Source: Deltaproteobacteria bacterium (GTDB lineage: Bacteria > UBA10199 > SPLOWO2-01-44-7). From it: a stretch of DNA of 64,000 bases. A program made the position numbers and the translations under genes. The stretch's first letter is position 1. Every line of letters starts with the position of its first letter. The notes below the pieces were generated by a model. The model worked only from the letters and a program-made list of their open reading frames with translations. It was not told the origin of the DNA and did not search any database. Positions 3,966 through 57,992 of this stretch are shown piece by piece. Location: NCBI GenBank assembly GCA_023265595.1, contig JAHFSU010000004.1:1667-65666 (forward strand), in the 5' to 3' direction.

Positions 3966-4035
3966 GGCCGAAATACTCTTCGGCCAAACTGCAAAAAAGT
4001 TGTGTGGTCAAGACGCGGCGAGATGACGAGGTGCG

Positions 4036-4845
4036 TTAACGACCGGCTTTGAAGCCGATCCAGTCCTCAAACGCATCGTAAAAAGTAAAGCCGACGCGAG
4101 GATTTGAGCCATATCTTAAAATGGGGCTCTGCACCAGATCTAACATAAATTTCTGGTCCCACGTTCCGTAGAGGCCGTTGCTGGCGCAAACTCTCCCTGC
4201 AAACCGTCTATAAATACCGTAACCTGTGCAGGCGCTCAATTGATTATAGAGGTTGGCCACTTCGGCATCATTCCAATTCATGGAATAAGAACAATAAAGA
4301 TAGTGAGCACTCTGAACCGGAAGTGCTTTCATATTGATTTCAGCAACATTTCCATCGGAGCAGGTCAGTTGATAAACAAAATGAACCTCTTGGGGGCATG
4401 GATCGAGTACCGCCCCTTTGGTTAACGTGAATGAAAAAACAAAATTTTTCATCTGTTCCACACTATCATTCAAATGCAATTTTCCATCACCCACTTTTTC
4501 CGGAAGATCCGGATCGATTTTTCTCCCCCCTGTGCTGAGATAATATCGGTTGTTCCCATCCAATATTTCAATCTCAAGAAAAGAACTCATCGACATAATC
4601 GGACTGCCGCGTCGAAAGGGACAAAATTCTTCGACTCGATCATTCCAATAATCTTGTGCCACATCAGGGGATAATGGCGGACGCTGTTGGCGTGGTAAAG
4701 AATTTGCTCCCGATGGCAATGAAGAGGCGGGTAACGATTGTGGCTGGCCGGAGCTACTACGAGAGGGGTTGGAACCGGTACCTCCCTTTAAAGAAAAGCC
4801 GACCACTAAGATCAAAACTGTCACGACATATAATATTTTCTTCAT
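4036..4845 (-). CDS. secreted hypothetical protein
   Basis: Start re-assigned to MKKILYVVTVLILVVGF (ATG at 4845), which has AAGGAGGAG 5 nt upstream. Signal peptide followed by an S/P-rich linker. Confidence 0.5.
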   Translation of the reverse strand: MKKILYVVTVLILVVGFSLKGGTGSNPSRSSSGQPQSLPASSLPSGANSLPRQQRPPLSPDVAQDYWNDRVEEFCPFRRGSPIMSMSSFLEIEILDGNNRYYLSTGGRKIDPDLPEKVGDGKLHLNDSVEQMKNFVFSFTLTKGAVLDPCPQEVHFVYQLTCSDGNVAEINMKALPVQSAHYLYCSYSMNWNDAEVANLYNQLSACTGYGIYRRFAGRVCASNGLYGTWDQKFMLDLVQSPILRYGSNPRVGFTFYDAFEDWIGFKAGR

Positions 4846-6360: not shown

Positions 6361-8081
<1,721 letters not shown>

Positions 8082-8148
8082 TTACCGCCTATATCTTTTT
8101 TCCCCTTTTCAAGCAACTTCTTTTGAGGTTTGCCGAAGAGGAGAATGG

Positions 8149-9300
8149 ATGACAGAGACTCTAGGAATCATTGGCAGTTCCATGCTGTTTCACGGGCTTT
8201 TTCCCATTATTTGGAAAGCGCTCCCGGACCAGCTTGTTATTTCTAAAAACGAAATTATAGATGCCGGAACCGTTGCGAAAGAAATAGGCCGCCATCTCCA
8301 CACCTCTCTTCTTCGGGACCATTGGATCGATTTTTCTTCCTGTCTTCTGAAACAACCTCAAGATCGACAAAAATCGGAACTCGACTCTTTGACGCGGCTG
8401 GCGCACCTGTTTAATGAGACGCCGCAGGATGAATTATCCGAGGCGGTCGAAAGGACAGCAAAACATTTTCAGAAATCGGGTATTTTATTTCTTAATGCCC
8501 CGGCGTTGGCCCGCGAGATCCATCGTCTGACCCTCTCTTTTCAGGGACAAACGCCGCCGCCGCCGACAACGCCAAATCCATGTATTGCAAAAGCGGTGGG
8601 TGTATTGATGCGCGCCACCGATGCAGCGCAAACAAAAGAGGAAAAAGAGGCCCTCAATTGGTGGATGGAATACCCACTCCGTGGAAAAACAGGCATGGAG
8701 GCCATTAGAGAGGCAAAGGCGGATTCTGGAAAAGCGACAAAACTCCGTCCGCTTCTTGAAAAATTCCCCGGCATTTTTGAGGTCGAAGAACTGGAATCTA
8801 TCTTGAATACGGCCTCATCCCAAGGAGATATCATGCAGGGTTTGGCTCATTTGATGATCGACCGGTGGGATTTTTTTGAAGCAAGACACCTTGACCGGAT
8901 CTTCATCCTCGCGGGACAACATCCCGGCATTGCCATCGCTTTGGCTTATCTTGCGTATCGAAGAGCCGAAATTTTTTCAGCATCGCATGTGCCGGCGCTC
9001 TTAAAAAAAACGGGGTTCGCATCGGTCCATCTCACCTTTCGATGGCCGCTTCAATGCATCCAATTTCCAAATATCTTGCACAAAATAATCAATCGAAGCG
9101 CTGTTTTTCGCGCCGTCGATTTGTTCAGACAACCGGCTTTCGGCATTGGATGGACTCTGTATGTGCTGGCGGAACGGCGCTCTGGAATTTTCGAAAAGAA
9201 TATGATTTGCCAACTCCACACAACCGGCAATCACAATGCACTGGTCCGATATGCTGTTGATGTGCTCCTCAAGAGCAACCCCTCATTGGCAAAGGCATAG
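8149..9300 (+). CDS. hypothetical protein
   Basis: Start trimmed to MTETLG (ATG 8149, AGGAGA 5 nt upstream) because the longer ORF overlaps eno. No recognised domain. Confidence 0.5.
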   Translation: MTETLGIIGSSMLFHGLFPIIWKALPDQLVISKNEIIDAGTVAKEIGRHLHTSLLRDHWIDFSSCLLKQPQDRQKSELDSLTRLAHLFNETPQDELSEAVERTAKHFQKSGILFLNAPALAREIHRLTLSFQGQTPPPPTTPNPCIAKAVGVLMRATDAAQTKEEKEALNWWMEYPLRGKTGMEAIREAKADSGKATKLRPLLEKFPGIFEVEELESILNTASSQGDIMQGLAHLMIDRWDFFEARHLDRIFILAGQHPGIAIALAYLAYRRAEIFSASHVPALLKKTGFASVHLTFRWPLQCIQFPNILHKIINRSAVFRAVDLFRQPAFGIGWTLYVLAERRSGIFEKNMICQLHTTGNHNALVRYAVDVLLKSNPSLAKA

Positions 9301-10215
9301 AAAGTGATCGACGGCAGAAACAGCAGCATCAAAAATATTTTTTAAACTCTCTTCCCCCCGGACCCAAAAAATGGACGGATCGGACCGAAACCATGTCCCC
9401 TGTCGTTTGGCAAATGCTTTTGTCTGTTTTTTGATTTCGGCCGTTGCCTCTGAAAGAGAGAGTTCTCCTTTCAAATGCGTTGCAATTGTTTTGTATCCCA
9501 ATGTTCTAAAGGCCTGCGAACCGGTCGAATAAAATTTCAACAATTCACGGACCTCTTCGACCCAGCCGTTGTAAAGCATCCAGTCGGTCCTTTTTTCGAT
9601 CCGCTCGTGCAAAACTTTTTTGTCGCAGCAAAGGCCGATTTGGAGCACCTCATAACGCGGATTTTGGAATTGATGTTTTTCCTGAAAAGTGGAAAGCGGA
9701 ATTCCCGTTATTTCATAAACTTCAAGGCCGCGGACGATGCGCGTGGTATCTTTAGGATTCAGTTTTTTGGCCAATGGGGGATCTCGGTTTTGAAGTTCTT
9801 CATGGAGTCTGTTTAAACCCTCGGTCTGAATTCGGGCTTCCAGTTCTTTTCTGATCTGCAGATCTTGAGGCGGCGCTTCACATAATCCGCGGAACAAAAC
9901 ACGAAGATACATGCCGGTGCCGCCGACGACGAACGGCACTTTGCCTCGACCAATGATGTCATCAATGGCTTTGTCCGCCAGAGCACAATATTGAGAGACA
10001 TCAAAATGTTCGCCCGGAGTGACGACATCAATCAGATGATGGGGAACACGCCGTCGCTCTTCAAAAGTCGGCTTCGCCGTCCCCAAATCGAGTTCACGCC
10101 AGACCTGCCCCGAATCGGCTGAAATAATTTCGCCATTATATTTTTGGGCCAACTCGATCGCCAGCTTTGTCTTGCCGCTGGCCGTCGGGCCACAAATGAC
10201 AACAATTTTTTTCAT
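9283..10215 (-). CDS. miaA: tRNA dimethylallyltransferase
   Basis: P-loop at the N-terminus, MKKIVVICGPTASGKTKLAIELA, and the typical MiaA length of 310 aa. Confidence 0.9.
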   Translation of the reverse strand: MKKIVVICGPTASGKTKLAIELAQKYNGEIISADSGQVWRELDLGTAKPTFEERRRVPHHLIDVVTPGEHFDVSQYCALADKAIDDIIGRGKVPFVVGGTGMYLRVLFRGLCEAPPQDLQIRKELEARIQTEGLNRLHEELQNRDPPLAKKLNPKDTTRIVRGLEVYEITGIPLSTFQEKHQFQNPRYEVLQIGLCCDKKVLHERIEKRTDWMLYNGWVEEVRELLKFYSTGSQAFRTLGYKTIATHLKGELSLSEATAEIKKQTKAFAKRQGTWFRSDPSIFWVRGEESLKNIFDAAVSAVDHFLCLCQ

Positions 10216-10544: not shown

Positions 10545-10586
10545 AGAGACTTTTGCTTTTGTATTATGGGAGCGTTGAAAAATGTC

Positions 10587-10655
10587 ACTCCTGCGAAAGC
10601 AGGAGTCCAGAAGTCATTGAAATTACTGGATCCCCGCTTTCGCGGGGATGACAAA
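10587..10655. repeat. hairpin repeats, family 2 (CTGGATYCCCGCTTTCGCGGGRATGACAA) plus a GAAA-loop hairpin
   Basis: ctcctgcGAAAgcaggag (10589-10606) and ctggatccccgcTTTCgcggggatgacaa (10627-10655). A near-identical copy is at 53411-53439. Confidence 0.55.
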
Positions 10656-10959
10656 AAAACCATTTTTCAACACTCCCATTATTCCGATATTAGAAATGAA
10701 AATAGAACTTAAAAAATTTGGAGACCTCTTGGTATCAAGGCCCGCAGGCAGGGAGGCCTTTTTGACTATAAAATCCTATTTCAAACCCTCTTCTCCTTCG
10801 GAGAACATCGAACTCGATTTCACGGGAGTAAAAGTCATGACCCCTTCTTGGTTGGGAGAAGTATTGGATGGGTTAAAAGAAGAGTTCGGCGAACGAGTCC
10901 GCTGTCTCCCCTCCGAAAATCCTACGGTAGTGGAATCGTTAAAAGCGCTGGAAGAATAA
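10648..10959 (+). CDS. DUF4325 / STAS-like domain protein
   Basis: About 100 aa, ...LDFTGVKVMTPSWLGEVLDGLKEEFGERV..., resembling STAS-like DUF4325 proteins that usually partner a GHKL ATPase. The true start may be MKIELKK at 10696. Confidence 0.55.
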   Translation: MTKKPFFNTPIIPILEMKIELKKFGDLLVSRPAGREAFLTIKSYFKPSSPSENIELDFTGVKVMTPSWLGEVLDGLKEEFGERVRCLPSENPTVVESLKALEE

Positions 10960-11843: not shown

Positions 11844-13615
11844 TCAAGTTCGCTTAAACCATTTTTCGATTTCGCTCAGCGAGAGTTCAACGCTTGTTGG
11901 GCGGCCATGAGGGCAATGGGTGGCGTGGTATTCATCCATCTCGATCAACAGATGGCGCATTTCTTCGAAGGACAATTTATCCTGAGCCCGCACCATCGTA
12001 TGACAAGAGATCGTTTTCAAAACGTGATCGATCGCATTGCCGACCGTTTGTGCCGTCCCTATCTCCTCTAATTCCTCGGCTATTTTTTCCAGCAGTTCCT
12101 TGGTTTTGGCTTCGCGAATCAAGGCCGGCACCGCTTTGATGACAAAAGTGTTTTGACCAAATGGTTCGATTTCGATTCCCGTTTTTTGTAAATCTTCCAG
12201 ATGACTATTCATGAGGGCGGTCTGTTTGGTTGTGGCCTCCCATGTGATCGGAACCAAAAGTCTCTGTGCCACATTTTTATTTCCCAAATTTTTCTTCAAT
12301 TTCTCAAAGCCAATTCTTTCGTGCGCCGCATGTTGATCGATCAGGATCAGTTTGCCACCAGACGCCTCGCACAAAATATAGGTATCATTAAAAGAGCCGA
12401 TGACTTTGAGCTCTTTGAAAAAAAACACTGGAAAATTTTCCGGATCGCGCAAGCGAGCCGGTTGAGAAAAGCGTCCCGGAGCCACGCCATACATTGTGGG
12501 GGCTACGAAAACTGGCGGGGCGAGGGTCGAACCCCCAATTTGGGGGTGAAATCCCCAAATTGAGGGGTGTCTTTTCGAAACCGGCTCGCTTGCGCGATCC
12601 GGAAAATTTTCAGTTTTTTTCTGCAACGCTTTTTTTATCGCCTTGGAAACAAACTCATGAATGCCCTGCGGTTTGACAAAACGGACTTCGCGCTTGGCCG
12701 GATGGACATTCACATCGACCTCTTTGGGATCGATCTCCAGATACAAAACGGCTTTGGGGTAGCGCCCCTTCATCAAAAAATCGCCGAAGCCGGCAATTAA
12801 GGCATGTTGCAACATCCGGTCGCGCAAAAAACGACCATTGAGATAAAAGTGGATATCGTTGGCCGTCGATGCCGTCTGGTTGGGAGAGACAAGCCATCCT
12901 TTTAGTGTCAACTCCGGATGCCTCTCTTCGACCGCAATCCCATTGGCAACAAAATCATCGCCTAAACAAGATTGCAGTCGCTGCAAAGGATCTTTCCCCA
13001 CAGGAGATGAAATTTTCGAAACACCATCAACAGAATAATCAAACGCACAATCAAAGTTGGATAAAGCCAAACGGATAAAAATGTCTTCAATGTGGCCCAG
13101 CTCCACTCCGTCTGATTTCAAAAATTTAAGACGGGCCGGCGTGTTGTAAAAAAGTTCCTGCACCAAAACACGTGTCCCTTTGGGAGAGGCGGCCGGACTC
13201 GCCTCAACAACCTTTCCTCCATGCACCTGAACAGCGGCCCCTTCCAGAGTGGCCTCTTGGGCCTTTGTCCAAATCTTCATTTTGGAAACGGCCGCAATGG
13301 AGGGGAGCGCTTCGCCGCGAAACCCGAGTGTCCGAATATTGAAAAGATCCCCCTCACCGGCAAGTTTGCTGGTGGCGTGGCGTTGAATGGCCAACTGAGC
13401 CTCTTCCAAACTCATGCCACAGCCGTTGTCGGAAATTTCAATCTGGTCGCTTGGCCTCTTGGAAACGGCCGCTTGAATATGTGTCGCACCGGCATCGATG
13501 GCATTTTCCATCAGCTCTTTGACAACCGAGGCCGGGCGCTCGACCACCTCACCGGCCGCAATTTTATCTGCCAGTTGTTGCGGCAAAATTTTGATTGGAG
13601 GCATAAGGGATGGCA
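11844..13615 (-). CDS. mutL: DNA mismatch repair protein MutL, carrying an in-frame palindromic insertion in the linker
   Basis: N-terminus MPPIKILPQQLADKIAAGEVVERPASVVKELMENAIDAGA (GHKL ATPase). C-terminal dimerisation domain with FVIKAVPALI. The linker holds ...ENFPDRASEPV...FSQPARLRDPENFP... encoded by a 33-bp inverted repeat. Confidence 0.9.
12431..12611. mobile_element. MITE-like structured palindromic element inserted in-frame in mutL
   Basis: A perfect 33-bp inverted repeat, gaaaattttccggatcgcgcaagcgagccggtt (12431-12463) against 12579-12611, flanks a 115-bp hairpin-rich core. The reverse complement of the core aligns with 45261-45410 over the identical blocks tttcgaaaagac, tcgaccctcgcc and gctccgggacgcttttct. 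Confidence 0.7.
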
Positions 13616-13664
13616 TACAAGAAAACCATTTGATGTTGAAAGGAAAAAATTGCATAACCAAAGG

Positions 13665-16253
13665 ATGCAAGTCACCAATCCAACCCGTCTCGAATGGTTC
13701 TTAAGCATGTTGGGCAGGCTTTTTGGGATGCATTCCCTTGAAGAAAAGTTGCCTCTCCCCGACACCGAAATCCTGACAGACCTTTATGAAAGCCATATGT
13801 TTGATAAAGGGAATTTTTTGTATCGTCATGTTTTAAAGCGGGTGGTTCCTTATGTCCGTCTGGATGAGAGCAACCTCGAGGCGGTCAAAGCCAAAATGAC
13901 ATTGGGCCCTTTTGTTTATGTAACGGTCAATTTGGGACAGCTCGATTATGATGTATTCAATGCAATCGTTGCAAAACAAGGGTTACCCAAGGCGCACTTC
14001 AACAATTTGATTAACATTCGTCGTTGGCTCCCCTTCAACGAAATTCGCCGAAGTTATGCCAAAAGAATCCGTTTTTTAATGCAATTTGGCGATCTGCCTC
14101 ATCCCCTTCTTTCCGGTTACGTGAGGAATCTCCTTTTAGAACAAAAAAGTCTCCTCTTCTCTTTTGACACGGGGGATGTCGATACCCTTTCAACACCCAG
14201 CCGTAATTTTTTGGAAGCACTACTCCTTCAAAGCCAAAAAGAATCGCCAAAACCGATTTTTGTAATCCCCATCCAGCTGGTTTGGGACAAACGCCCCAAA
14301 CGGGAGCAGCCTTCTCTTTTTAAAGTGCTCTCGGGTGAAACAGAATATCCGGGCAAGTGGCGCAAACTGATTTTATTTTTTAAACATTTCCGAAAAAGAT
14401 CTCTTGTTCGTTTTGGGGCGCCGATCCCTTTGGATGATTTTTCGGCTTTCGATTTGTACCAGAAAATCATCAGCTCTTTGGAGATAGAAAAGCGAACGCT
14501 GACAGGGCCATTTATCAGACCGCGGGGCTGGTTTTTGGACAGAATGTTTGAAGACGAGGCACTCTCCCGCACACTCTACGAAGTGGCCAAAGAAAAAAAC
14601 AAACCGCTTCCCTCCGTTAAAAGATTGGCACGGCGCTATGGAAAAGAGATAGCGGCCGATGTCCGTTATTCTTACATCGAGTTTGGCGCTAAAATCATCC
14701 ACTGGATTTTCAAAACTTTTTACGAAGGGGTTTTGATCGATCCGGAGGGTTTGAAAAAACTAAAAAAAACGTTGAGTCTTGGCCCCACGGTTTTGGTCCC
14801 CAACCATCGCTCGCACATCGATTATCTTTTAATGGCGCACCTATGTTACACCAACGATATTGTTATTCCTTATGTGGCGGCCGGCATCAATCTCTCCTTC
14901 TTTCCTCTCGGATTTTATTTCAGGCATTGCGGCGCCTTTTTCATGCGACGAACTTTTGCCGGCAATCTTTTGTACAAAATAGTTTTTCAAACTTATCTGA
15001 AGGTGTTGCTTGAAGAGGGCTATCTGCAGGAATTTTTCATTGAAGGGGGACGCTCCCGCACCGGAAAATTGAAAAGCCCCAAATTGGGAATGTTAGCCAT
15101 GTATTCACAAGCCATGCACGAGGGAACCACCAAAGATATTCGGTTTGTGCCGGTGAGCATTACCTACGACCGCGTCTTGGAGCAAAAATCGTATCTGGAA
15201 GAGGTGGAGGGAAAGCCAAAGCCGAAAGAAAAAACGAGAGACCTTTTGAAACTGACAAAATATCTGAAGGGTCGCTATGGAAAAATCTATGTCCATTTTG
15301 ACGACCCCATCTCTTGGCAGGAAATTTCGGGAGAAATTGAAGAAGAAAATTGGGAAAAAAAGAAACCGAAAATTGTGGAGACGCTCGCCAGCCGGATTTG
15401 CCATTCCATCAACAAACAAGTGGTCGTTATCCCGCAAGCATTGGCGGCCTCTGCCCTGCTGAGAAGCCCCAAACGAGGGGTATCGCTGGATACAGCAGAA
15501 GTTTTTTTTAAAGAACTGCTCCACTATCTTCAATGGAAACAGGTAAAACTTTCCGACACGCTCCACAAAAACCCCGAAGGGGCTTATTTTGAAGCCGTCC
15601 ACCAGTTTGAAACATCGGGGCTCATCAAAAAACATTTGGGTTTGGAAGAAACTTTTTATGAAATCCCCATCGACAAAAGACTCGAACTCGATTTTTTTAA
15701 AAACAGTTCCATTCATTATTTTGTCTCGCTCTCTCTTTGGTGTCATCTTTTGCTTTCCGGAAAATCGGAAACTTTTTTTGTGAAAAATCTGGTCGAGGCA
15801 TTTTCCTTTTTTCAAAAAATTTTCCACTATGAATTTCGTTTTAGCACCCGCCGCGCTCTGGAGGAACATTTGGACAAGCTCTGCTGCTATCTGCAGGAGA
15901 GAAAGGCAGTCGAATATCATGCCGGGGAAATGCATCTGCTAAAGGAGGGGCGGCCGTTATTGCGCGATTTTGCGGCGTTGATTCAAAATTATATCGAGGC
16001 CTATTTTGTAGCTTGGAAAACTTATCTTTTGCGGCCGATCTATCCCGACGATACCAAAGGGCTCACCAAGGCGATGCTGACACACGGCAAACACCAGCTG
16101 ATGCTGGGAGAAATTCTGTATCCGGAGGCGGTTTCGCAGGCCACATTTGAAAATGCGATTCAGGCCTTTCAAACGTTGGGACTTTTCACATCGGATTCGG
16201 AAATGGCGAAAAATTTGGAAAAGGAATTATCCAATCTCTTGGATTTTTGCTAG
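13665..16253 (+). CDS. plsB: glycerol-3-phosphate acyltransferase (PlsB type)
   Basis: Acyltransferase HxxxxD block VLVPNHRSHIDYLLM, then FFMRRTF and FIEGGRSRTGKL, all PlsB hallmarks. Start set at ATG 13665 (AAAGGA upstream) because the longer ORF overlaps mutL. Confidence 0.8.
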   Translation: MQVTNPTRLEWFLSMLGRLFGMHSLEEKLPLPDTEILTDLYESHMFDKGNFLYRHVLKRVVPYVRLDESNLEAVKAKMTLGPFVYVTVNLGQLDYDVFNAIVAKQGLPKAHFNNLINIRRWLPFNEIRRSYAKRIRFLMQFGDLPHPLLSGYVRNLLLEQKSLLFSFDTGDVDTLSTPSRNFLEALLLQSQKESPKPIFVIPIQLVWDKRPKREQPSLFKVLSGETEYPGKWRKLILFFKHFRKRSLVRFGAPIPLDDFSAFDLYQKIISSLEIEKRTLTGPFIRPRGWFLDRMFEDEALSRTLYEVAKEKNKPLPSVKRLARRYGKEIAADVRYSYIEFGAKIIHWIFKTFYEGVLIDPEGLKKLKKTLSLGPTVLVPNHRSHIDYLLMAHLCYTNDIVIPYVAAGINLSFFPLGFYFRHCGAFFMRRTFAGNLLYKIVFQTYLKVLLEEGYLQEFFIEGGRSRTGKLKSPKLGMLAMYSQAMHEGTTKDIRFVPVSITYDRVLEQKSYLEEVEGKPKPKEKTRDLLKLTKYLKGRYGKIYVHFDDPISWQEISGEIEEENWEKKKPKIVETLASRICHSINKQVVVIPQALAASALLRSPKRGVSLDTAEVFFKELLHYLQWKQVKLSDTLHKNPEGAYFEAVHQFETSGLIKKHLGLEETFYEIPIDKRLELDFFKNSSIHYFVSLSLWCHLLLSGKSETFFVKNLVEAFSFFQKIFHYEFRFSTRRALEEHLDKLCCYLQERKAVEYHAGEMHLLKEGRPLLRDFAALIQNYIEAYFVAWKTYLLRPIYPDDTKGLTKAMLTHGKHQLMLGEILYPEAVSQATFENAIQAFQTLGLFTSDSEMAKNLEKELSNLLDFC

Positions 16254-33832: not shown

Positions 33833-36800
33833 ATATTTCTGAAATTTCGATACGCAACCCCGTTTTTGCTTGGATGTTGATGATCGGGCTTATTTTTTTT
33901 GGATTTATCAGTTTTAGCCAAATGGGGGTCTCTGAAATGCCCGATGTCGATTTTCCCGTTGTCACCATTCATACCACACTGGAAGGAGCGGCTCCCGAAG
34001 TCATGGAGACCGATGTGGTGGATGTGATCGAAGATGCGGTCACCGGTATTCAGGGAATACGCAATCTCTCCTCAACCGCCAGACAGGGAATGGCAACGGT
34101 GAGCGTTGAATTTGAACTCGATAAAAATATTGATGTGGCTGTTCAAGAGATCGATTCCAAAGTGACCCAAGCAGTAAAAAATCTTCCCAAAGAGATGGAC
34201 CCCCCTATTGTTACCAAAACCAATCCGGAAGATCAGCCGATCCTGTGGCTTTCTCTCTCCGGAAACCGTCCTCTCCCCTTCATGATGCAATACACAAGGG
34301 ATCATCTCAAAGATCAGTTTCAGACAGTGGCCGGCGTTGGCGATATTTTTCTGGGCGGGTTCATCGAACCTAATTTAAGGGTCTGGATCGATCAAAAAAA
34401 GCTGGAAGAATATGAGTTAACTGTTCAAGATATCATCAACGCTATCAATACAGAACATATCGAACTCCCTGCCGGCAGAATTGAAACAGACAAGACGGAG
34501 TTAAATGTCCGAGCCATGGGAGAAGCCATAACCCCGGAAGAATTTGGCAATATTGTGATTCCAAAACGGGGGGGAGTCCCGATTTATAAACCGATTTACT
34601 TAAAAGAGGTCGCCCATATTGAGGAGGGTCTTAATGACGTGCGCCGCATTTCAAGGACAAATGGGGAGCCCGCTGTTGGCTTAGGGATTCGGAAACAGCG
34701 GGGATCCAATTCCGTAGCCGTAGCGACCCGTGTCAAACAAAAGCTCTTGGAATTACAAAAACTTTTGCCAGACGGACTAAAATTAAATGTCAATTTTGAC
34801 AGCACCCGATTTATTCAAGACTCGGTCAACGAACTCAAATTTACTCTCTTTTTGGCAGCCCTTTTGACCTCTGTAGTTTGTTGGCTTTTTTTGGGTTCAT
34901 GGAGTTCCACCATCAATATATTAATGGCCATTCCGACATCGATCGTTGGAACATTCATTGCCCTTTTCTTTCTAGGCTATACTCTCAACACATTTACCTT
35001 TTTGGGTTTAATCTTGGCCATTGGAATCGTTGTGGACGACGCCATCATGGTCCTCGAAAACATTTTTCGTCACCAAGAAAATGGAGAAGATAAATTCACC
35101 GCAGCGATCCGAGGATCCAAACAGATCACTTTTGCAGCCCTTGCCGCCACATTATCGGTTGTTGCTATTTTTATCCCCGTTGCTTTTATGAAGGGGGTTA
35201 TCGGAAAATTTTTTCTCCAATTCGGGGTTACAATGTCGGTAGCTGTTTTGCTCTCTCTTTTGGAAGCATTAACCCTGACACCCATGCGCTGTTCCCAATT
35301 TGTGGAAGCCGGTGCCAGAACCAGCCGCATTGGAAAGGCATCGGATACTTTCTTTAGGACTCTGAGCCTTCGTTATCATCGTTTTTTAAAAATCTGCCTG
35401 AATCACCGATGGAAAGTAGTCAGTTTATCGATGATGGTTTTCGTCCTCTCCCTGACGATTTTCGTTTTTTTGAGAAAAGAGTTTGTGCCGCCCCAGGACC
35501 AAAGCATGTTCTTGATCTCTTTTAAAACACCCGTCGGGTCTTCTATCGATTTTACTTCTGAAAAAGCCAAACAAATCGAGGACTTTCTTGCAAGACGGAC
35601 TGAAGTCTTGCGTTATTTCGTAGCCGTGGGTGGTTTTGGTGGAGGAGAGGTCAATCAGGGAATGGTTTTCATCACATTGAAGCAACCCAACGAAAGAAAA
35701 CTAACACAACAACAATTGATGTCCGTCTGCCGTGAATCTTTTAATAAAATTACGGATTTAAAAGTGTATTTAATGGATCTTTCTACTCGCGGATTTACAG
35801 CCAAGAGGGGTTTTCCAATTGAGTTTACAGTACGTGGTCCCAATTGGGAAAAACTCGTTGACCTATCCCAAACGATCCAAAAAAAGATGGAAAAAGAAAA
35901 AAAATATTTTACCGATGTCGACACCGATTATCTGGCGGATGTGCCTGAAATACATGTGGTACCCGACCGGGAAAAGGCAGCGGCAAGAGGTGTCAATATT
36001 GAAACAGTCAGCCAAACCATCAATGCACTGGTTGGCGGAATTCGAGCTGGAAAATTCAAACAAAATGGGAGGCGCATTGATATTCGAGTCCGTCTCGTTT
36101 CAGAAGCGAGGAATAAGCCGGAAGATATCAAACAGTTATGGATACGAAATAACCAAGGCGAGATGGTCCAGTTAGGAGATGTTGTCAAAATCGAACAGGT
36201 ACCGACTTTGTTAACGATTACTCGAGAAGATCGAGAAAGAGCCATCAGCGTCTTTGCCAATGTAACTCCCGGAGCTTCACAAGCAGACGGACTGAATGAA
36301 GTGCAAAAAATTGCAGCTCAAATTTTGCCAGAAGGTTATCATATTGTCCTGACCGGCTCCGCGGAAACATTCAAAGAATCCTTTCAAAACCTATTCTTTG
36401 CGCTCTATCTTGGCATTGTTGTGGCTTACATGATTTTAGCCAGCCAGTTTAATTCCTTTTTACACCCATTTACCGTTTTACTGGCTCTTCCTTTTAGCAT
36501 TTCTGGAGCCGCCCTTGCGCTTTTTATTACCGGAAACTCTCTGAATATTTTCAGTATGATCGGCATTATTTTATTGATGGGAATTGTGAAGAAAAATTCC
36601 ATTTTGTTAGTTGATTTTACAAATCAACGAAGAAAAGACGGACTGAATGTAAAAGAGGCTCTACTGGAAGCATGTCCTATTCGCCTGCGTCCCATTTTGA
36701 TGACTTCCATAGCTACTATCGCTGCAGCCATTCCGCCTGCCCTGGCTCTAGGACCAGGTGCTGAGGCAAGAGTTCCCATGGCCGCTGCTGTTATCGGTGG

Positions 36801-36906
36801 TGTTTTCTTATCTACACTTTTGACTCTTTTTGTTGTTCCTTGTGCCTATAGCCTTCTCTCTCACCGGGAAAAACAAGACGAACGACGAAAAGAAGACAGT
36901 CCCTGA
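33829..36906 (+). CDS. RND (HAE1/AcrB-like) efflux pump
   Basis: About 1025 aa with 12 TM segments and two large periplasmic loops. Start MNISEISIRNPVFAWMLMIGL overlaps the tolC stop as ATGA. Classic AcrB blocks are present. Confidence 0.9.
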   Translation: MNISEISIRNPVFAWMLMIGLIFFGFISFSQMGVSEMPDVDFPVVTIHTTLEGAAPEVMETDVVDVIEDAVTGIQGIRNLSSTARQGMATVSVEFELDKNIDVAVQEIDSKVTQAVKNLPKEMDPPIVTKTNPEDQPILWLSLSGNRPLPFMMQYTRDHLKDQFQTVAGVGDIFLGGFIEPNLRVWIDQKKLEEYELTVQDIINAINTEHIELPAGRIETDKTELNVRAMGEAITPEEFGNIVIPKRGGVPIYKPIYLKEVAHIEEGLNDVRRISRTNGEPAVGLGIRKQRGSNSVAVATRVKQKLLELQKLLPDGLKLNVNFDSTRFIQDSVNELKFTLFLAALLTSVVCWLFLGSWSSTINILMAIPTSIVGTFIALFFLGYTLNTFTFLGLILAIGIVVDDAIMVLENIFRHQENGEDKFTAAIRGSKQITFAALAATLSVVAIFIPVAFMKGVIGKFFLQFGVTMSVAVLLSLLEALTLTPMRCSQFVEAGARTSRIGKASDTFFRTLSLRYHRFLKICLNHRWKVVSLSMMVFVLSLTIFVFLRKEFVPPQDQSMFLISFKTPVGSSIDFTSEKAKQIEDFLARRTEVLRYFVAVGGFGGGEVNQGMVFITLKQPNERKLTQQQLMSVCRESFNKITDLKVYLMDLSTRGFTAKRGFPIEFTVRGPNWEKLVDLSQTIQKKMEKEKKYFTDVDTDYLADVPEIHVVPDREKAAARGVNIETVSQTINALVGGIRAGKFKQNGRRIDIRVRLVSEARNKPEDIKQLWIRNNQGEMVQLGDVVKIEQVPTLLTITREDRERAISVFANVTPGASQADGLNEVQKIAAQILPEGYHIVLTGSAETFKESFQNLFFALYLGIVVAYMILASQFNSFLHPFTVLLALPFSISGAALALFITGNSLNIFSMIGIILLMGIVKKNSILLVDFTNQRRKDGLNVKEALLEACPIRLRPILMTSIATIAAAIPPALALGPGAEARVPMAAAVIGGVFLSTLLTLFVVPCAYSLLSHREKQDERRKEDSP

Positions 36907-36985
36907 CCAAATACGTCCGTCTGAAATCTCTGAGATCAATTTAATTTCTTTTATGCTTGGCATATCTCTTGCATTGATTTTTAGC

Positions 36986-37705
36986 ATGTCGTATCGCGCT
37001 CGATATGAAATTATCTGGGATGGCGCTACTTTTCACGTCACATGGCAATGCCATAACCATTCCTGGCTTATGCAATACGACTGGGCCAAACAGCTCTATT
37101 ATGATTTATTGCTGAAATATAAAAACAAATATGGTGTCAGTTTTTATTCTCACCACTTTATGGACAATCACGTCCATCTTTCCGGGAAAATAAATAAAAC
37201 AAAAGAGGAGTTTTCAGCACTATTCCAAGTTGTCAATACCATTCTAGCTAAAAAAATAAATAAACGTCTAAAAAGAAGGGGGCAAGTCATTATGGATCGA
37301 TTTAAATCCCCATGTATTCAATCAGACAAAGATCAATTGGCGGTAATGACTTATCACGACTTGAATTCATGGAGAGCACAAAAAGTGAAACATCCCAAAG
37401 AATACCAATGGAGCTCTTATGGTTATTATGCTTATGGAAAAAAAGATCCATTGATCACTCCAGCCCCAGCCTATCTGGGCTTAGCTAATACAAATGAGGC
37501 AAGACAAAAAATCTATCGCAAACTAATAGCTTCTATTATGGAGGAAGAGGGTATAAAAAGAAAAAATTATTCCAGAGTTTATTATATTGGAGATCCAAAT
37601 TGGGTATTAGAAAGAAAAAAACGGCTCAAGGAAATAAAACAAATTAAGAGGGAAGCATTCCTCTTAAGACAAAAAAGACAGATATATGCACAGGCACCGC
37701 CTTAA
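36986..37705 (+). CDS. REP-associated tyrosine transposase (RAYT, IS200/Y1 HuH family)
   Basis: Start MSYRARYEIIWDGATFHVTWQCHNH. HuH motif FMDNHVHLSG. C-terminal motif YHDLNSW...EYQWSSYGYY, the Y-x-W-S-S signature of RAYTs. Short (239 aa), single copy, no terminal IS inverted repeats. Confidence 0.75.
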   Translation: MSYRARYEIIWDGATFHVTWQCHNHSWLMQYDWAKQLYYDLLLKYKNKYGVSFYSHHFMDNHVHLSGKINKTKEEFSALFQVVNTILAKKINKRLKRRGQVIMDRFKSPCIQSDKDQLAVMTYHDLNSWRAQKVKHPKEYQWSSYGYYAYGKKDPLITPAPAYLGLANTNEARQKIYRKLIASIMEEEGIKRKNYSRVYYIGDPNWVLERKKRLKEIKQIKREAFLLRQKRQIYAQAPP

Positions 37706-37875
37706 ATTCCATTTTTTACTAAGGATAAAACAAAAATAAAAACCAAAAAAGCTGTTATTTGTACACGTGTATTATTATCCCCATTCTACAGCTATCCTCG
37801 ACCGTCAAAAAATGCTACTTCCAATTTTTATCAAAAGTTATAAGGTTCCCTCTATATAATGCTTAAATAATTTTC

Positions 37876-40356
37876 ATGATTTCCTGGATTATTCTTCCAT
37901 CTGAAAAAGCCGCAGAACGGATAAGACGGACATCCTTTTCCCAATCGAACCAATCCGTTTGGTTGGGAGAGACCTTTTTTTCTCTTCAGCATTTTTTAAA
38001 TAAGCTATCTGGCTCCCACACCAACCTTCTCAAGAAAAGCCTGCAAAAACATCTATTGGCCCATTGTCTTAAACAGCATCCGCTCAAATATTTTGAGAAG
38101 CAAAGACACCTCGGCTACTTGACTACTATTTTTATGACAGCCATTCACCGTCTAAAACAGGCAGATTTAAAACCAGACGGACTAAAAGAGAGGCTAAAAG
38201 AGAGCGGATCCCTCAAAGAATATGATCTTTTGATCACTTATCAGCGCTATGAAGAACTCAAGACAAAACTCGGCTGTATTGATAGCGAAGATCAATATGC
38301 ATCCGCTGTGGCAAACCTCAACAATCCCGAAAACCCATTAAAAATGATAACATCCATCACCTTTCAAGATTTTGACGAAGAACCAGACGGACTGAAAAAA
38401 TTGCTCCACAACATCGCCCAAAACTACCCCCAAATCCATATCGATTTCCAAAAAATTCCGACACAAGAAGCACCACGTCCATCAAACAATCCGCAACCGA
38501 CACCGGTCCAACTCTTTTCTCTCCCCACACCCCATCAAGAGAGCCATTGGTTTGTAAGGCAGCTTGAAAAAATCGCTTCCGACACAACAAAAACGAACGA
38601 TATCGGTATTTTGATGTCGGGCCCTGCCGGCTATTACGAATTCGTCTGGAAACTTTTGCAACAGATGCAGTTGACAGAAGGCCCCTACCCCTTCTCTAGT
38701 TGGCACGAAAGGCCGGAAGGGCGTTCCGTTCTGGAAGAGGCGGCGCAATTAAATCTCGAAAAGGCCACATTGACCGAATATCTTTCAGAACTGGTTCAAA
38801 AAATCCCTGTAGAAAATCCCCTCTTCGAATTTCTGGAGTCCTTTTATTTTCAGGAACACATTTTAAGCCTCGGCCATCTCTCGCACTCGGAATGGCTTTT
38901 GTGGCTCCACGAAGCGCTGGAGGAAAAACCGAAGCGGTCGGTTCCCGAATCGCTGCAGGGAATCCAATGGCTTCTCTTTGGCGAAAGAGATTATCCTCAT
39001 TTGGAATATCTTTGGGTTCCCAATTTAACGGAAGGCGCCTTTCCTCTGCAAGCGCCACAGGTTTTTTTTCAAGAGATGAAAGATCGGGGTCGGCCCGAAT
39101 GGAAACCGATTTGTGCAGCATTTCCGGACCCGCAAAAGTCCTTTGAACGACAATACAAAATGTTCCACCACACCCTGTCCCACACACACAAAACCACATG
39201 GCTCACTTTCCCTAGAATGGATAGTCTCGGTGGAGACCAATCCCCCTCTCCGTTCACATGGGATTTTGGCGAGCCCCAAAATGTCGAAACAAAATCGCCG
39301 TCATTTTTCGGCAATAATGAGGAAAAAATCCGAATCGATAAAAAATGGAAAATCGAACGGGAAAGACTCGACAACCATCTCGAAACAAAAGCGTTCCATA
39401 CCGAATTGGGGACCATACCCCTGCCGCCAAACCATATTTTCAGCCCTTCACAGCTGGAGACCTACGCTGAATGCCCGTTTAAATATTACTCACGAAAGAT
39501 CCTGAACATCCCTCAAATCAAAGAGCATTCGCCGGAGCTGGATCCCGATGATAAAGGAACACTTTTTCACAATTGCCTCGAGGCATTGCTGCGTCAGGAA
39601 GGAAAACTGTATGCGGAAGCCAGAAACAACCGTAAAAAAGAAGACGAACTGTATCTGAAATTAAAAGCGACGGTCGAAAAAGTTTTTCAGGAGTCGGCAA
39701 AGGAACTCTGCTATGCGCATCCGGAACTCTACCAGCGCCTGAAAGAGAAAACCATGGCACAGGCCGTGCAACTACTCGGAAATGAACTCGAAGAATCACG
39801 AAAATTGGAAAAACCTCTGACCCCAACCTATTTTGAATGGACATTTGGTCCCTCACCGGAAGAGGCCCTCCGAATTGAGGCACAAGATAAAAAAGAACCG
39901 ATCCAAATTGGTGGACGCATCGACCGAATCGATTGCGATACAAATTCCAAATCATTTATGGTGCTGGATTACAAAACTGGTTCCATCAGCGGATTCAAAG
40001 ACAAATTGATGGAAGGATTGTCGCTGCAGCTCCCGATTTATCTTTTAGCCGTAAAAAAATTATTGCTCCCCGATTATCAAATCGTCGGCGGCATGCTCCT
40101 CTCCACCCGTTCCGGAAAAAAGGAGGCGGGATTGGTCGACAATCAATTTAATGAACAGCATTATCAATTGGGAAAAAGATCCGGCGCTCTCATGGATTCG
40201 GAAAAATTAGAGGCAGTGATTCAATCCACGGTCGTGCACATTCAAAACTATGTCGCTCAAATGCGAAAAGGTTATTTTAGCGCGCAACCGAAAGATTGCA
40301 AAGTCCGCTGCGATTACAAAGAGATTTGTCGCTATGCCCACAAACCGTTTGCATAA
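37876..40356 (+). CDS. addB: AddB-like helicase-nuclease subunit (PD-(D/E)XK nuclease with C-terminal Fe-S cysteines)
   Basis: C-terminal RecB-type nuclease motifs GRIDRID...MVLDYKTG and the Cys cluster CPFKYY...C-x2-C-x5-C (CKVRCDYKEIC). Lies immediately upstream of a UvrD-type AddA gene. Confidence 0.7.
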   Translation: MISWIILPSEKAAERIRRTSFSQSNQSVWLGETFFSLQHFLNKLSGSHTNLLKKSLQKHLLAHCLKQHPLKYFEKQRHLGYLTTIFMTAIHRLKQADLKPDGLKERLKESGSLKEYDLLITYQRYEELKTKLGCIDSEDQYASAVANLNNPENPLKMITSITFQDFDEEPDGLKKLLHNIAQNYPQIHIDFQKIPTQEAPRPSNNPQPTPVQLFSLPTPHQESHWFVRQLEKIASDTTKTNDIGILMSGPAGYYEFVWKLLQQMQLTEGPYPFSSWHERPEGRSVLEEAAQLNLEKATLTEYLSELVQKIPVENPLFEFLESFYFQEHILSLGHLSHSEWLLWLHEALEEKPKRSVPESLQGIQWLLFGERDYPHLEYLWVPNLTEGAFPLQAPQVFFQEMKDRGRPEWKPICAAFPDPQKSFERQYKMFHHTLSHTHKTTWLTFPRMDSLGGDQSPSPFTWDFGEPQNVETKSPSFFGNNEEKIRIDKKWKIERERLDNHLETKAFHTELGTIPLPPNHIFSPSQLETYAECPFKYYSRKILNIPQIKEHSPELDPDDKGTLFHNCLEALLRQEGKLYAEARNNRKKEDELYLKLKATVEKVFQESAKELCYAHPELYQRLKEKTMAQAVQLLGNELEESRKLEKPLTPTYFEWTFGPSPEEALRIEAQDKKEPIQIGGRIDRIDCDTNSKSFMVLDYKTGSISGFKDKLMEGLSLQLPIYLLAVKKLLLPDYQIVGGMLLSTRSGKKEAGLVDNQFNEQHYQLGKRSGALMDSEKLEAVIQSTVVHIQNYVAQMRKGYFSAQPKDCKVRCDYKEICRYAHKPFA

Positions 40357-40365
40357 GGAGCTGGA

Positions 40366-40400
40366 TGCCTCGTTGTTTTTCACGAGGAATCCGGCTCCTT
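40366..40400. repeat. degenerate REP-like family-1 copy in the addB-addA spacer
   Basis: tgcctcgttgtttttcacgaggaatccggctcctt. Confidence 0.45.
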
Positions 40401-44874: not shown

Positions 44875-45195
44875 ATGGCCAACTCCAAGCCACCGTTTCA
44901 TCCCCTCGACGAAATTCTAGGCCGATTTTTGAAAGGCCGCAAGTGGGAGGCGAAACTGAAACAATATTCGCTGCATACCCGCTGGGCAGAAATTGTCGGC
45001 CCCAAAATTGCCATTCAAGCAACCCCGACCATTTGGCGCGGCAATACATTATTCGTCGAAGTCTCCCATCCGGCTTGGCTGACGGAACTCCGGATGATCG
45101 AATCCGACATCCTCGAAAAAATCCGTTCCCATTGTGAAGGAATCGCAATCGAAAAAATCCATTGGATCCTAAGACCCGCTGTCTCACATAAATAA
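44875..45195 (+). CDS. DUF721 (DciA-like) protein
   Basis: ..LHTRWAEIVGPKIAIQATPTIWRGNTLFVEVSHPAWLTELRMIESDILEKI.. matches the DUF721 W-x-EIVG...L-x-V-x-V-x-S-x-W-x-x-EL pattern. Divergent from the dksA-like gene. Confidence 0.6.
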   Translation: MANSKPPFHPLDEILGRFLKGRKWEAKLKQYSLHTRWAEIVGPKIAIQATPTIWRGNTLFVEVSHPAWLTELRMIESDILEKIRSHCEGIAIEKIHWILRPAVSHK

Positions 45196-45227
45196 TCTTC
45201 TACGACGTTTGTGATGCGGCGGGTTTT

Positions 45228-45436
45228 TGCGAGGTTGTGAGGACTTCCGCGCACTGTTTTCGAAAAGACGTGGGTTGTTTTGGGGAGTTCCCCAAAACAC
45301 CCACTCGACCCTCGCCTCGCCGATTTGTTCCGCCCCACCTACACGGCAGGTGGGGCTTAAACCCCCAATCGGTGCGGCGAGGCTCCGGGACGCTTTTCTT
45401 AAAACAGTTCGCTCGCGTCCTCACAACCTCGCATCA
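45228..45436. repeat. structured palindromic element A, same family as the mutL insertion (candidate structured RNA or MITE)
   Basis: Long-range imperfect inverted repeat gcgaggttgtgaggac... against ...gtcctcacaacctcgc. It encloses nested hairpins (ttttggggagttccccaaaa; cccacctacacggcaggtggg; cctcgccg/cggcgagg). The core aligns to the reverse-complemented mutL insert. Confidence 0.6.
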
Positions 45437-45501
45437 AAAGAGCATATTGTACGGCCCCCGCAAAACAAAATGTCCGTTTTGTTTTGGAGGAGGGTTAAGC
45501 A

Positions 45502-45696
45502 GTGACATGGCAATGAGGGTGATGAAAAGCCTGCGGATGGCGATTTTATCAGCCGGGATACAATAAATAAAATCGCCACCATAGGAGCGAAATCAGCTAG
45601 CTCGGATGCGACGCTTTCGCGTCGCCGTTAAACGCTGTCGCGGGGCCGTCCCAAAAATTGTCGCGTCTTTTCAGCACCCTCATTGCCATGTCACTT
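45502..45696. repeat. structured palindromic element B (20-bp perfect closing inverted repeat around hairpins)
   Basis: gtgacatggcaatgagggtg (45502-45521) is the exact reverse complement of 45677-45696. Internal hairpins include ggcgatttta...taaaatcgcc and gcgacgCTTTCgcgtcgc. No plausible CDS. Confidence 0.5.
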
Positions 45697-45699
45697 CAT

Positions 45700-45752
45700 G
45701 GTCATCCTGAGGGCGTGCAATCCCGAGCCGGTCAGGACCCATCCCTTTTTGC
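45700..45752 (+). terminator. putative intrinsic terminator ending the dciA-A-B transcript
   Basis: GC-rich hairpin ggtcatcctgagggcgtgcaatcccgagccggtcaggaccc, then atcccTTTTTgcg. Confidence 0.4.
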
Positions 45753-45791
45753 GATTTCATTCGAGGTCGTAGAAGATTATTTATGTGAAAT

Positions 45792-49708: not shown

Positions 49709-49995
49709 TCATTTACGAAGTAAATTTGGATGTGGATAAAGAGATCGCCAAAGATTTTGAGACATGGCTCAAACCCCACATGCAAGAGGTTGTCTCCTGC
49801 GGTCATTTTGAAAAAGCCCTCTCTTATCAAGTGGAAGATCCAATAAAAATTTTATGGACGATTCATTATCATGCAAAAAACCGTTCCCTCGTGGAGACCT
49901 ATCTTGAAGAACATGCACCCCGCCTGCGTGAAGAGGGCCTCAAAAAATTTGGGAAGAAATTCAGGGCTACGCGGCGCATTCTAAAGCAACTGTAA
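49705..49995 (+). CDS. small hypothetical protein (96 aa)
   Basis: ATG overlaps the hppD stop. No known motif. Confidence 0.4.
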   Translation: MIIYEVNLDVDKEIAKDFETWLKPHMQEVVSCGHFEKALSYQVEDPIKILWTIHYHAKNRSLVETYLEEHAPRLREEGLKKFGKKFRATRRILKQL

Positions 49996-50355
49996 ACCGA
50001 CACATTTTTGAAAATGTCTGAAGTCGCCATCTCGTGTAATGAGTAGGACCTTATGATCCAAACAGGATTGGGCAACAAGAGTATCGGCCAATCTCGCTTT
50101 CAACCCTTTACCCATTAATTGGGCGCGCAAAGTTCCCACCCGAATCCAATAATCATCATGCAACTCTAAAAGAGGTATCGATTTGAAGAGGGATACAATT
50201 TCTTTGGAAAGTTTAGAATCACTGAGCAGCTCTGCCAAAACAACCGGCGGCAAAACCGCTTGTTTATGGGCTAAAGCGAGCTCTACTGCTTCGACATCAG
50301 AACCCTTCTGTCCGGAAAAATAGGCAATCCAAGAGCTGGTATCCACGGCAATCAT
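49981..50355 (-). CDS. vapC: PIN-domain toxin VapC
   Basis: IAVDTSSWIAYF...D (acidic residues at conserved PIN positions, C-terminal ITRDGDF). Start overlaps the antitoxin stop. Confidence 0.8.
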   Translation of the reverse strand: MIAVDTSSWIAYFSGQKGSDVEAVELALAHKQAVLPPVVLAELLSDSKLSKEIVSLFKSIPLLELHDDYWIRVGTLRAQLMGKGLKARLADTLVAQSCLDHKVLLITRDGDFRHFQKCVGLQLL

Positions 50356-53404: not shown

Positions 53405-53439
53405 TGTCATCTGGATTCCCGCTTTCGCGGGAATGACAA
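53405..53439. repeat. hairpin repeat family-2 copy
   Basis: tgtcat-ctggattcccgcTTTCgcgggaatgacaa, near-identical to 10627-10655. Confidence 0.55.
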
Positions 53440-57536: not shown

Positions 57537-57992
57537 ATGCGATTTGGGATCACACAAAAGCCCCAGAAACCGATTCGACTTTCCAACCTTCTTGAAATAA
57601 AAGAGGCCTTCTCAAAATATTGTCGAAAAAACCCGATCGATCTGGTATTTGTTCACGGCTCCCTTGCGCAAGATAAATTAAAGACATTGAGCGACATCGA
57701 CATTGCCGTATTATTTAAAGAGGGAGGTAAAGATATTTTGAAAGCTATTTCGAAAACGGTCGACAAACTATCAGAACTCATCGATCGCGAAGATATCGAC
57801 CTCATGATGTTAAACAAAGCGTCCCCCCTTGCTTGCATGCAGGTACTTCGCAACGGCAAAATTCTTTATTGCCGCAATCTATCGGTGCTCAAAAAGTTTC
57901 GCCTAAAAACCATACAACGTTATTTGGCAACGAGCTATTTGCGTACCACATTCAACCGCCGCATGGAGATGGCCATCCTTGGAGAAAAATAA
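57537..57992 (+). CDS. nucleotidyltransferase (MNT-type antitoxin)
   Basis: Pol-beta NTase motif VFVHGSLAQDKLKTLSDIDIAVL (GS-x9-13-D-x-D). Directly followed by a HEPN gene. Confidence 0.7.
   Translation: MRFGITQKPQKPIRLSNLLEIKEAFSKYCRKNPIDLVFVHGSLAQDKLKTLSDIDIAVLFKEGGKDILKAISKTVDKLSELIDREDIDLMMLNKASPLACMQVLRNGKILYCRNLSVLKKFRLKTIQRYLATSYLRTTFNRRMEMAILGEK

Follow-up and report, generated by a model that had tools for sequence, protein, structure and literature searches.

A palindromic DNA element translated within the MutL linker of an uncultured deltaproteobacterial clade

The mismatch-repair gene mutL of an uncultured Deltaproteobacteria bacterium (assembly GCA_023265595.1) contains a long palindromic element, here called E1, which is translated in frame within the linker of the encoded protein. 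The element was analysed in a stretch of 64,000 nucleotides, positions 1,667 to 65,666 of contig JAHFSU010000004.1, hereafter the window. Comparison with the mutL genes of related metagenome-assembled genomes (MAGs) indicates that E1 is a foldback DNA module of about 200 bp, which belongs to a small repeat family and has probably resided in the linker region of mutL since before this clade of MAGs diverged. In such a scenario, E1 would be translated as a disordered linker whose length matters more than its sequence, and would therefore be tolerated, whereas its pairing would be kept by processes acting on palindromic DNA and not by any function of the RNA.

A palindrome inside the mutL coding sequence

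The mutL coding sequence extends over 11844..13616 on the minus strand, as deduced from the list of open reading frames (ORFs), from Pfam and from a 100% match to the public protein P0001 (586 aa, start at 13604; a contig with the identical MutL belongs to ENA analysis ERZ27297570), and lies in an uninterrupted longest ORF at 11844-13670 of the same strand. Pfam recognises HATPase_c_3 and DNA_mis_repair (ending at aa 331) and then MutL_C (from aa 406). The whole foldback element (12422..12620, minus strand), delimited by its inverted repeat and its DNA fold, encodes nearly all of the sequence between these domains, approximately aa 333-398, and therefore sits in the inter-domain linker.

The segments 12431-12463 and 12579-12611 are exact reverse complements (33/33), as an earlier note on this DNA had reported, and enclose a core of 115 nt (12464-12578) with hairpins of its own, including the inverted repeat I3 (12532-12545 / 12553-12566). 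The chance expectation for a 33-bp inverted repeat with arms no more than 300 nt apart in the window is ~64000 x 300 x 4^-33, or ~3e-13. With mismatches and one indel, the repeat grows to 12422-12471 / 12571-12620 (50 nt, 88%), which leaves a spacer of 99 nt, compared to 115 nt for the perfect arms. Folded as DNA (-78 kcal/mol, z = -13.4 against shuffles), the complete element of 199 nt adopts a long outer stem that closes a three-way junction with two inner hairpins, and among 210-nt windows taken across the gene the linker segment with E1 is the most structured one (z -22.9). Inner hairpin 1 (12531..12568, minus strand) shows the apex TTTGGGG...CCCCAAA and contains I3, and inner hairpin 2 with the junction helices (12472..12529, minus strand), deduced from folds and pair counts, carries the blocks TCGACCCTCGCC and GGCTCCGGGACG. 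At the level of the protein, the perfect arm that is distal in mutL (12431..12463) encodes PARLRDPENF in the mutL frame and the proximal one (12579..12611) encodes ENFPDRASEPV; the mirrored peptides ENFPDRASEPV and PARLRDPENFP are both found in the translation of E1, and the preserved frame and mirrored peptides described earlier were thus recovered. An 11-nt direct repeat, GGAAAATTTTC, is self-complementary and therefore present at both ends of the element (12430..12440 and 12601..12611), with 171 nt (57 codons) between its copies.

The closest MutL proteins among 5.8 billion sequences searched are 52-70% identical and are labelled as coming from 'Deltaproteobacteria bacterium' MAGs. Such orthologues have 571-615 aa, compared to 586-590 aa here, and their linkers are equal in length to that of the window MutL and unalignable in sequence. 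The expectation that E1 would stand out as an insertion of ~60 aa unique to this genome was consequently not borne out, as total and linker lengths are equal and the element occurs in four relatives. Moreover, removal of E1 would leave the window MutL with a linker of only ~10 aa. A clade-wide motif I-Y-G/A/S that normally follows LQKK is absent from this protein, where the palindrome begins directly after QKK. Linkers of MutL proteins are known to be disordered, and an E. coli linker cut by 40% did not behave as a mutator at the locus tested (PMC6902014), whereas stronger shortening or scrambling of the yeast linker abolishes repair (PMC6393296). By analogy, a near-linkerless MutL might be impaired, which would probably be the reason why E1 has been retained.

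A small repeat family at the same site in related mutL genes

The core of E1 recurs in the window at E2 (45228..45433, plus strand), a paralogous copy that lies intergenically, dciA and tsaC/sua5 converging on its spacer, and has the same core but unrelated arms (inverted repeat of 44 nt at 77%, fold z -10.8). Both copies share the exact blocks TTTCGAAAAGAC (45258-45269), TCGACCCTCGCC (45305-45316) and GGCTCCGGGACGCTTTTC (45381-45398), of 12, 12 and 18 nt, and a BLAST comparison within the window joins them with E = 7e-6, the core recurring at 45.25-45.41 kb, in keeping with the earlier observation of a related core at 45.26-45.41 kb. The two cores are ~67-77% identical, and the arms are without similarity. 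A covariance model built from E1 and E2 only (R1) scores E2 at 192 bits and finds two family copies in the 64 kb; the E1 core (12455..12588, minus strand), which comprises an inner closing helix GAAAAG/CTTTTC and the shared blocks A, B and C, obtains 157 bits with R1 and 140 bits with a rebuilt model (R2), compared to 16-21 bits on the plus strand.

For the search in relatives, the mutL DNA of ten further genes was compared, eleven clade genes being sampled in all. R1 detected a homologous element in the mutL linker of locus L031 (protein P0009, 54-56% identical to the window MutL; 70 bits, E 1e-17), and R2 did so in those of L001 (P0002; 53 bits, E 3e-11), L114 (P0012; 85 bits, E 2e-20) and L115 (P0013; 91 bits, E 4.5e-22), where the E-values come from a short calibration and are rough, and the bit scores and the clean negative controls stand. 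The four carriers share 54-70% MutL identity, and all four matches fall within the linker. No match of R2 at E<=1 was found in 80 control mutL loci (496 kb), which were JGI metagenome relatives of MutL, all <=38% identical and useless as orthologues, and with filters off nothing better than E 0.39 appeared in the six remaining clade and outgroup mutL loci.

The presence of a homologous element at the same place of mutL would be explained most simply by inheritance together with the gene. In a neighbour-joining tree from which the linker columns were excluded, P0013 is basal, followed by the pair (P0009,P0012), with (P0001,P0002) nested; the carriers therefore bracket the clade, and the simplest reading is an old resident that was replaced in some lineages. 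Regarding the previous claim of a dispersed element that is not native MutL sequence, the repeat family is real, as E2 and a further copy in the protein P0121 testify, but its foreignness to MutL did not hold, given the homologous elements in the linkers of P0002, P0009, P0012 and P0013.

Several observations weigh against an ancient resident. Five of the sampled clade members (P0003, P0004, P0005, P0008 and P0011) are without the family, so that an ancestral origin needs several replacements, and the tree just described comes without support values. The tree of the elements is itself at odds with that of MutL: the element of L001, the closest relative, is the one from which E1 differs most (44% identity), and E2 is 68% identical to the element of L115 and 67% to E1, with 38/41 bases shared by E2 and L115 over hairpin 1 in a hand count. 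This discord would fit repeated capture, or gene conversion by other copies in the genome, as well as vertical descent, and both vertical inheritance and the way in which the pairing is maintained are inferred here. Furthermore, the cores of E1 and E2 share long exact blocks and their arms nothing, a sharp boundary that gradual divergence does not explain, and the alignment from which pairing is counted below (A7) was fitted to the model, which inflates the counts.

The main rival to the favoured reading is accordingly the repeated capture of a mobile or recombinogenic palindrome family, which would land in, or gene-convert, the linker of mutL again and again and in either orientation, the linker being a tolerant sink. 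We regard this as possible, though on balance unlikely. Its main support comes from the linker being the most structured 210-nt segment of mutL in 8/9 genes of the group (z of -22.9 in the window, -10.7 in L031, -9.2 in L001, -6.1 in L003, -5.9 in L030, -5.8 in L033, -5.2 in L002 and -3.5 in L004, with none in L032), whereas among 40 diverse control mutL genes the linker reached z <= -5 in 4/40 and never <= -9. Other members of the clade do hold different repeats in the same linker. In L003 (6419-6497), two inverted in-frame copies of GTCATTCCCGCGAAAGCGGGAATCCAG are translated as VIPAKAGIQ, and this REP-like hairpin is dispersed in the clade (window 53411-53437, 61375-61400 and 10626-10652; L001 7054-7080). 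The linkers of L030 (~1190-1330) and L004 (~2810-2970) contain palindromes of GGACCACGGACC-type repeats, whose two arms yield peptides such as QTTDHGPRT and PLSVVRSPLS, respectively. L001 has a comparable pair of repeats at 15693-15769. The occurrence of both orientations, the incongruence of the element and MutL trees, with a hairpin 1 nearly identical in E2 and L115 despite 54% MutL identity, and the additional copy in the unrelated ORF of P0121 also speak for capture.

The latter copy is known only as a peptide (...CFRKDVGCFGECPKTPTRPSPRRF...GGAPGRFS...) on another metagenome contig, with different flanking peptides. P0121 and P0122, from ENA contigs of 2666 and 1029 bp, represent a 170-aa ORF with no Pfam domain and with an in-frame translation of an E2-like element, identical in 24/25 residues over hairpin 1 and followed by APGRFS. 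A concatenate of six-frame peptides from E1 and E2 retrieved mutL itself alone from the 5.8 billion proteins, and a shorter query added P0121; this search was insensitive, as it missed P0009, P0012 and P0013, which carry the family.

On the other side, no target-site duplication is present at any copy whose flanks were read, that is, on direct reading of the flanks of E1, E2 and two further foldbacks of the window described below (E3 and E4), the 11-nt direct repeat of E1 lying within its arms, and the termini are not conserved. Between the sisters P0009 and P0012 the arm sequences correspond in flipped register, as would fit a single event with a later inversion. Wider searches for the family also gave no copy: the exact 18-mer GGCTCCGGGACGCTTTTC had 25 matches in GTDB representatives (a collection without the source genome), all in unrelated taxa and at chance level, a two-block pattern had 0 matches in JGI metagenomes (equally without the source genome), and nothing was found in plasmids, phages or viral contigs. 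The sole 'Deltaproteobacteria' match of the GTDB scan, L014, was rejected as ordinary coding sequence.

Other palindromes were noticed in the course of these comparisons. Between two enolase-family genes, L004 contains two foldbacks of unique sequence side by side (7599-8163), of 333 and 230 nt and each deeply nested, so that nested palindromes of such length are a general feature of these genomes, and the GTCATTCCCGCGAAAGCGGGAATCCAG copy at 61375-61400 of the window forms the last codons of a 988-aa ORF.

Pairing, arm turnover and inversion

In contrast to the shared core, the arms differ from copy to copy. Pairwise similarity among the left arms of E1, E2, E3, E4 and the elements of L031 and L001 does not exceed that of shuffles (p 0.07-0.96); the stretch TTCCGGAT, common to the arms of E1 and L001, was considered as arm homology and rejected as not significant. 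In L114, the palindrome extends in register into native conserved codons: AGATTTGCGGA (3974-3984), the E-I-C-G codons of the clade-wide I-Y-G motif, has an exact mirror image, TCCGCAAATCT, 184 nt downstream (4187-4197), and P0012 has ~six extra residues at the mirrored site compared to its sister. Such mirrored codons are the trace expected of inverted copying of flanking sequence, for instance by a nascent strand folding back at the hairpin, a step that we infer would lengthen the arms. In E. coli, imperfect palindromes are known to undergo templated correction (PMC7202029), which, acting between the arms, would keep them paired. Together, inverted copying and templated correction would explain why arms unique to each site are nonetheless complementary, and even perfect (33/33), around an older core. 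In this respect, E1 and its relatives offer a natural case for how long palindromes stay perfect and lengthen in bacterial chromosomes. As a separate observation, the VLQREICG codons of L114 (3959-3984), with which the N-terminal part of P0012 MutL ends, are complementary at 19/26 positions to the codons of the conserved ILCESPDH motif in the C-terminal domain (4256-4281), which may be due to chance or to templated mutation.

A third process, recombination from arm to arm, would invert the whole element. The elements of the sisters P0009 (L031, sense) and P0012 (L114, antisense) lie in opposite orientations and align through core and arms. The arms were flipped along with the core, as at positions where the L114 arms disagree the left arm of L031 equals the L114 antisense (CGCTCGG vs CGCGAGG), and since the arms in L031 and L114 are imperfect, an ambiguity of assembly is unlikely. 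From these alignments, the element would have inverted during evolution. Inversion in silico is stop-free at 34/45 crossover pairs in the window gene and at 18/40, 39/54, 53/59 and 28/45 in the four orthologues, mostly for pairs within the arms; equal-length segments elsewhere in the mutL genes are stop-free in 17-35% of cases when inverted, and with this baseline the result is supportive, not decisive. The flipped window allele would encode ENFPDRASEPV-EKSVPEPRHTLWGLRKLAGRGSNPQFGGEIPKLRGVFSK-PARLRDPENF. As judged from the reading frames, inversion would thus recode ~38 linker residues without breaking the MutL frame, and E1 offers itself as a candidate case of intragenic inversion within a repair gene.

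The element could be more than a passenger, namely a selected device acting at the level of DNA, a self-maintaining, invertible three-way-junction palindrome of the mutL of this whole clade that would either flip within populations to yield two linker isoforms or, bound or processed as a cruciform or hairpin, tune the dosage of mutL. This seems doubtful; if it were true, the near-identical hairpin 1 and the GGCTCCGGGACGCT block, kept at 54% MutL identity, would reflect recognition by a protein. Programmed recoding, in which a recombinase flips E1 within populations to yield two isoforms of the MutL linker, is a little more doubtful still. It has in its favour the inverted repeats that flank the segment, the frames that stay open in both orientations in all five genes, the opposite orientations of sister lineages and the documented existence of intragenic recoding invertons (bioRxiv 10.1101/2023.03.11.532203). 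However, no serine or tyrosine recombinase family was found in a scan of 37 window ORFs or among the 18 annotated genes around mutL on a second contig, the recoded part is a disordered linker without conserved sequence, for which a phenotypic pay-off is not obvious, and the baseline for stop-free flipped segments is already considerable.

The conservation of the fold itself bears on whether the palindrome is a matter of DNA or of RNA. In a six-member alignment, 97.3% of cells pair and 30/37 pairs have changed on both sides, counts that are subject to the inflation mentioned above; the covariation score is 0.81 against 0.24 in shuffles, 0/500 shuffles reach the observed values, and controls with slid partners pair at 36-57%. 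Already between E1 and E2 alone, the outer 8 pairs of hairpin 1 all differ and still pair, making eight consecutive compensated pairs. Such very strong covariation, together with E2 lying 3' of dciA and having the orientation that E1 has in mutL, would suit a functional structured RNA in the mutL mRNA, either for processing or regulation, of whose fold the palindrome would be the DNA shadow. Nevertheless, this is very improbable. G-U pairs make up 1-9% of all pairs, and the opposite strand folds equally well or better in 6/6 elements, which points to DNA-level palindromes and not to sense-strand RNAs; the strand of the model is sense to mutL in the window, L001 and L031, but antisense in L114 and L115. 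Covariation is thus accompanied neither by a constant strand nor by tolerance of G-U, and no described RNA family fits, as Rfam gave only a tRNA in the window at its gathering score and, at E<=10, nothing above noise. Conservation is no better in the unpaired than in the paired columns (0.57 vs 0.54), and no intrinsic terminator or promoter signal rises above shuffled expectation. Two further ideas failed: junction nucleotides did not prove more conserved than stems, and a tRNA-like reading of GGGGGTTCGACCC in the core is not conserved in E2 and receives no tRNA or Rfam call.

Finally, the earlier note had seen in E1 an insertion like a miniature inverted-repeat transposable element (MITE) that could generate a reversible mutator state. 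Taken as a recent MITE insertion that makes mutL a contingency locus, with deletions or frameshifts of the gene caused by cruciform formation or slippage at the perfect palindrome, this is scarcely credible. In its favour, deletions are known to be frequent at long palindromes, the arms match perfectly over 33 bp and 11-nt direct repeats stand at both ends of E1. On the other hand, a spacer of 99 nt (115 nt between perfect arms) is of the kind that stabilises palindromes, the element is neither recent nor unique, and it has neither the conserved termini nor the target-site duplications that define a MITE. The GGAAAATTTTC copies, which a hairpin would bring together, are spaced by 171 nt or 57 codons, so that the favoured slippage deletion would preserve the frame and be irreversible, and the frame also stays open on inversion. 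Moreover, an element that persists in at least five lineages is either not highly unstable or protected by selection from being lost.

Apart from mutL, the window contains other foldbacks and some neighbouring genes of note. A perfect 23-bp inverted repeat (45186-45208 / 45764-45786) encloses the whole 600-bp spacer between dciA and tsaC/sua5, its left arm covering the dciA stop codon, and E2 and the foldback E3 (45488-45708) are nested inside it as a palindrome of palindromes. E3 and a fourth foldback, E4 (10563-10682), which overlaps the annotated start of a DUF4325 gene, both have a long unique outer stem, two or three inner hairpins and the inner ends TGAAAAG...CTTTTCA; despite this like architecture they were rejected as family members, as R1 and R2 have no match there at E<=10. 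A hairpin GGCGATTTT...AAAATCGCC is common to E3 and the mutL element of L001. Two tandem ORFs at 58439-61402 (988 aa) and 61402-63783 (794 aa) have no Pfam match and similar C-terminal stretches (...NPYMR...), and a 16/18 match to block C of the element lies inside the coding sequence of the second one (63663-63680). The window also encodes a nucleotidyltransferase/HepT-like toxin-antitoxin pair (57537-58415), a lone PIN-domain gene (49984-50355) and an AddAB-like helicase-nuclease pair (37876-43181).

Comparison with known systems

The T-shaped terminal hairpins of adeno-associated virus, which terminate a linear genome, act as the origin of viral replication and occur in flip and flop orientations, resemble E1 in shape only, with a long stem around two small hairpins and an interior in two orientations, but there is no evolutionary or functional link between them. 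Classical MITEs (e.g. Correia, Nezha or Chunjie) are characterized by terminal inverted repeats conserved in the family, target-site duplications and a parent insertion sequence. Like E1, they are small, palindromic and non-coding, with some copies within genes, but neither conserved termini nor target-site duplications were seen here, nor, among the window ORFs scanned, a parent insertion sequence or matching transposase, and the description of E1 as MITE-like could not be upheld.

Some likeness is also offered by repetitive extragenic palindromic (REP) sequences and their REPIN and bacterial interspersed mosaic element (BIME) assemblies, in which hairpin repeats are paired inversely into longer hairpins, also without target-site duplications. 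REPs are units of 20-40 nt with a conserved GTAG or CGTC tag and a sequence conserved between copies, whereas the arms described here are of 33-48 nt and unique to each copy, and GTAG is only present in the loop of E1 hairpin 2 and is not conserved in the alignment. Genes of the Y1_Tnp type, similar to the REP-associated tyrosine transposases (RAYTs), are found in the window (36986-37702) and in L001 (9088-9708). The window gene, either IS200-like or RAYT-like, follows directly on an RND efflux gene within an AT-rich patch and is the sole transposase-like gene among the scanned window ORFs; its flanks (36700-37900 read) showed no copy of this or any other repeat family encountered here, and neither an inverted repeat nor an R2 match was reported there. 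The L001 gene is flanked (8985-9087 and 9709-9790) by inverted sets of GTAG-tagged, GC-rich hairpins (GTAGGCGTCGGACCCC...); it is a typical RAYT accompanied by REPs of its own and has no relation to the mutL element.

As to process, quasipalindrome template-switch mutagenesis in E. coli (PMC7202029) turns imperfect inverted repeats into perfect ones, in the manner proposed for the arms of E1; it has been shown in the laboratory on short quasipalindromes, whereas its evolutionary action on a 200-bp element would be an extension of it. Recoding intragenic invertons (Chanin et al., bioRxiv 10.1101/2023.03.11.532203) have in common with E1 an intragenic segment with flanking inverted repeats and an inversion that keeps the frame and alters the peptide, as found in silico for the window gene and four orthologues. 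Nevertheless, the published invertons are orientations that coexist in one population and are thought to be flipped by an invertase, while here the orientations differ between species only and no invertase was found among the genes scanned; the arms described here, of 33-48 bp, also exceed those of the published invertons by far, and the segment between them folds as a palindrome in its own right.

Along with the recoding invertons, the closest counterparts of E1 are the Rickettsia palindromic elements (RPEs; Ogata et al. 2000, 2002), which, to the extent that they are summarised in PMC10969869, are palindromes of 100-200 bp that occupy housekeeping genes in frame and are translated at sites tolerated by the protein fold, and form repeat families with intergenic copies too. 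E1 is likewise an in-frame palindromic repeat of this size range with the ORF intact on both sides, at a site between Pfam domains whose sequence is unalignable among orthologues. The likeness concerns the kind of element and not the sequence family, the host lineages being unrelated. Moreover, E1 forms essentially the whole inter-domain linker instead of an added loop, its outer arms are not conserved between copies, both orientations occur at the same site, and copies are few (two in 64 kb and none in public scans). In the literature covered, we did not find described a whole functional linker made from a palindrome, a long-lived fold with turnover of its sequence, or reading in either orientation. 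For annotation, these elements imply that hypervariable MutL linkers in such genomes may be derived from repeats and that repeat peptides of the VIPAKAGIQ type occur in real proteins. In any case, an old palindrome residing in mutL would carry the idea of selfish palindromes that turn into protein sequence beyond Rickettsia, into uncultured bacteria that are free-living and into a protein at the core of DNA repair.

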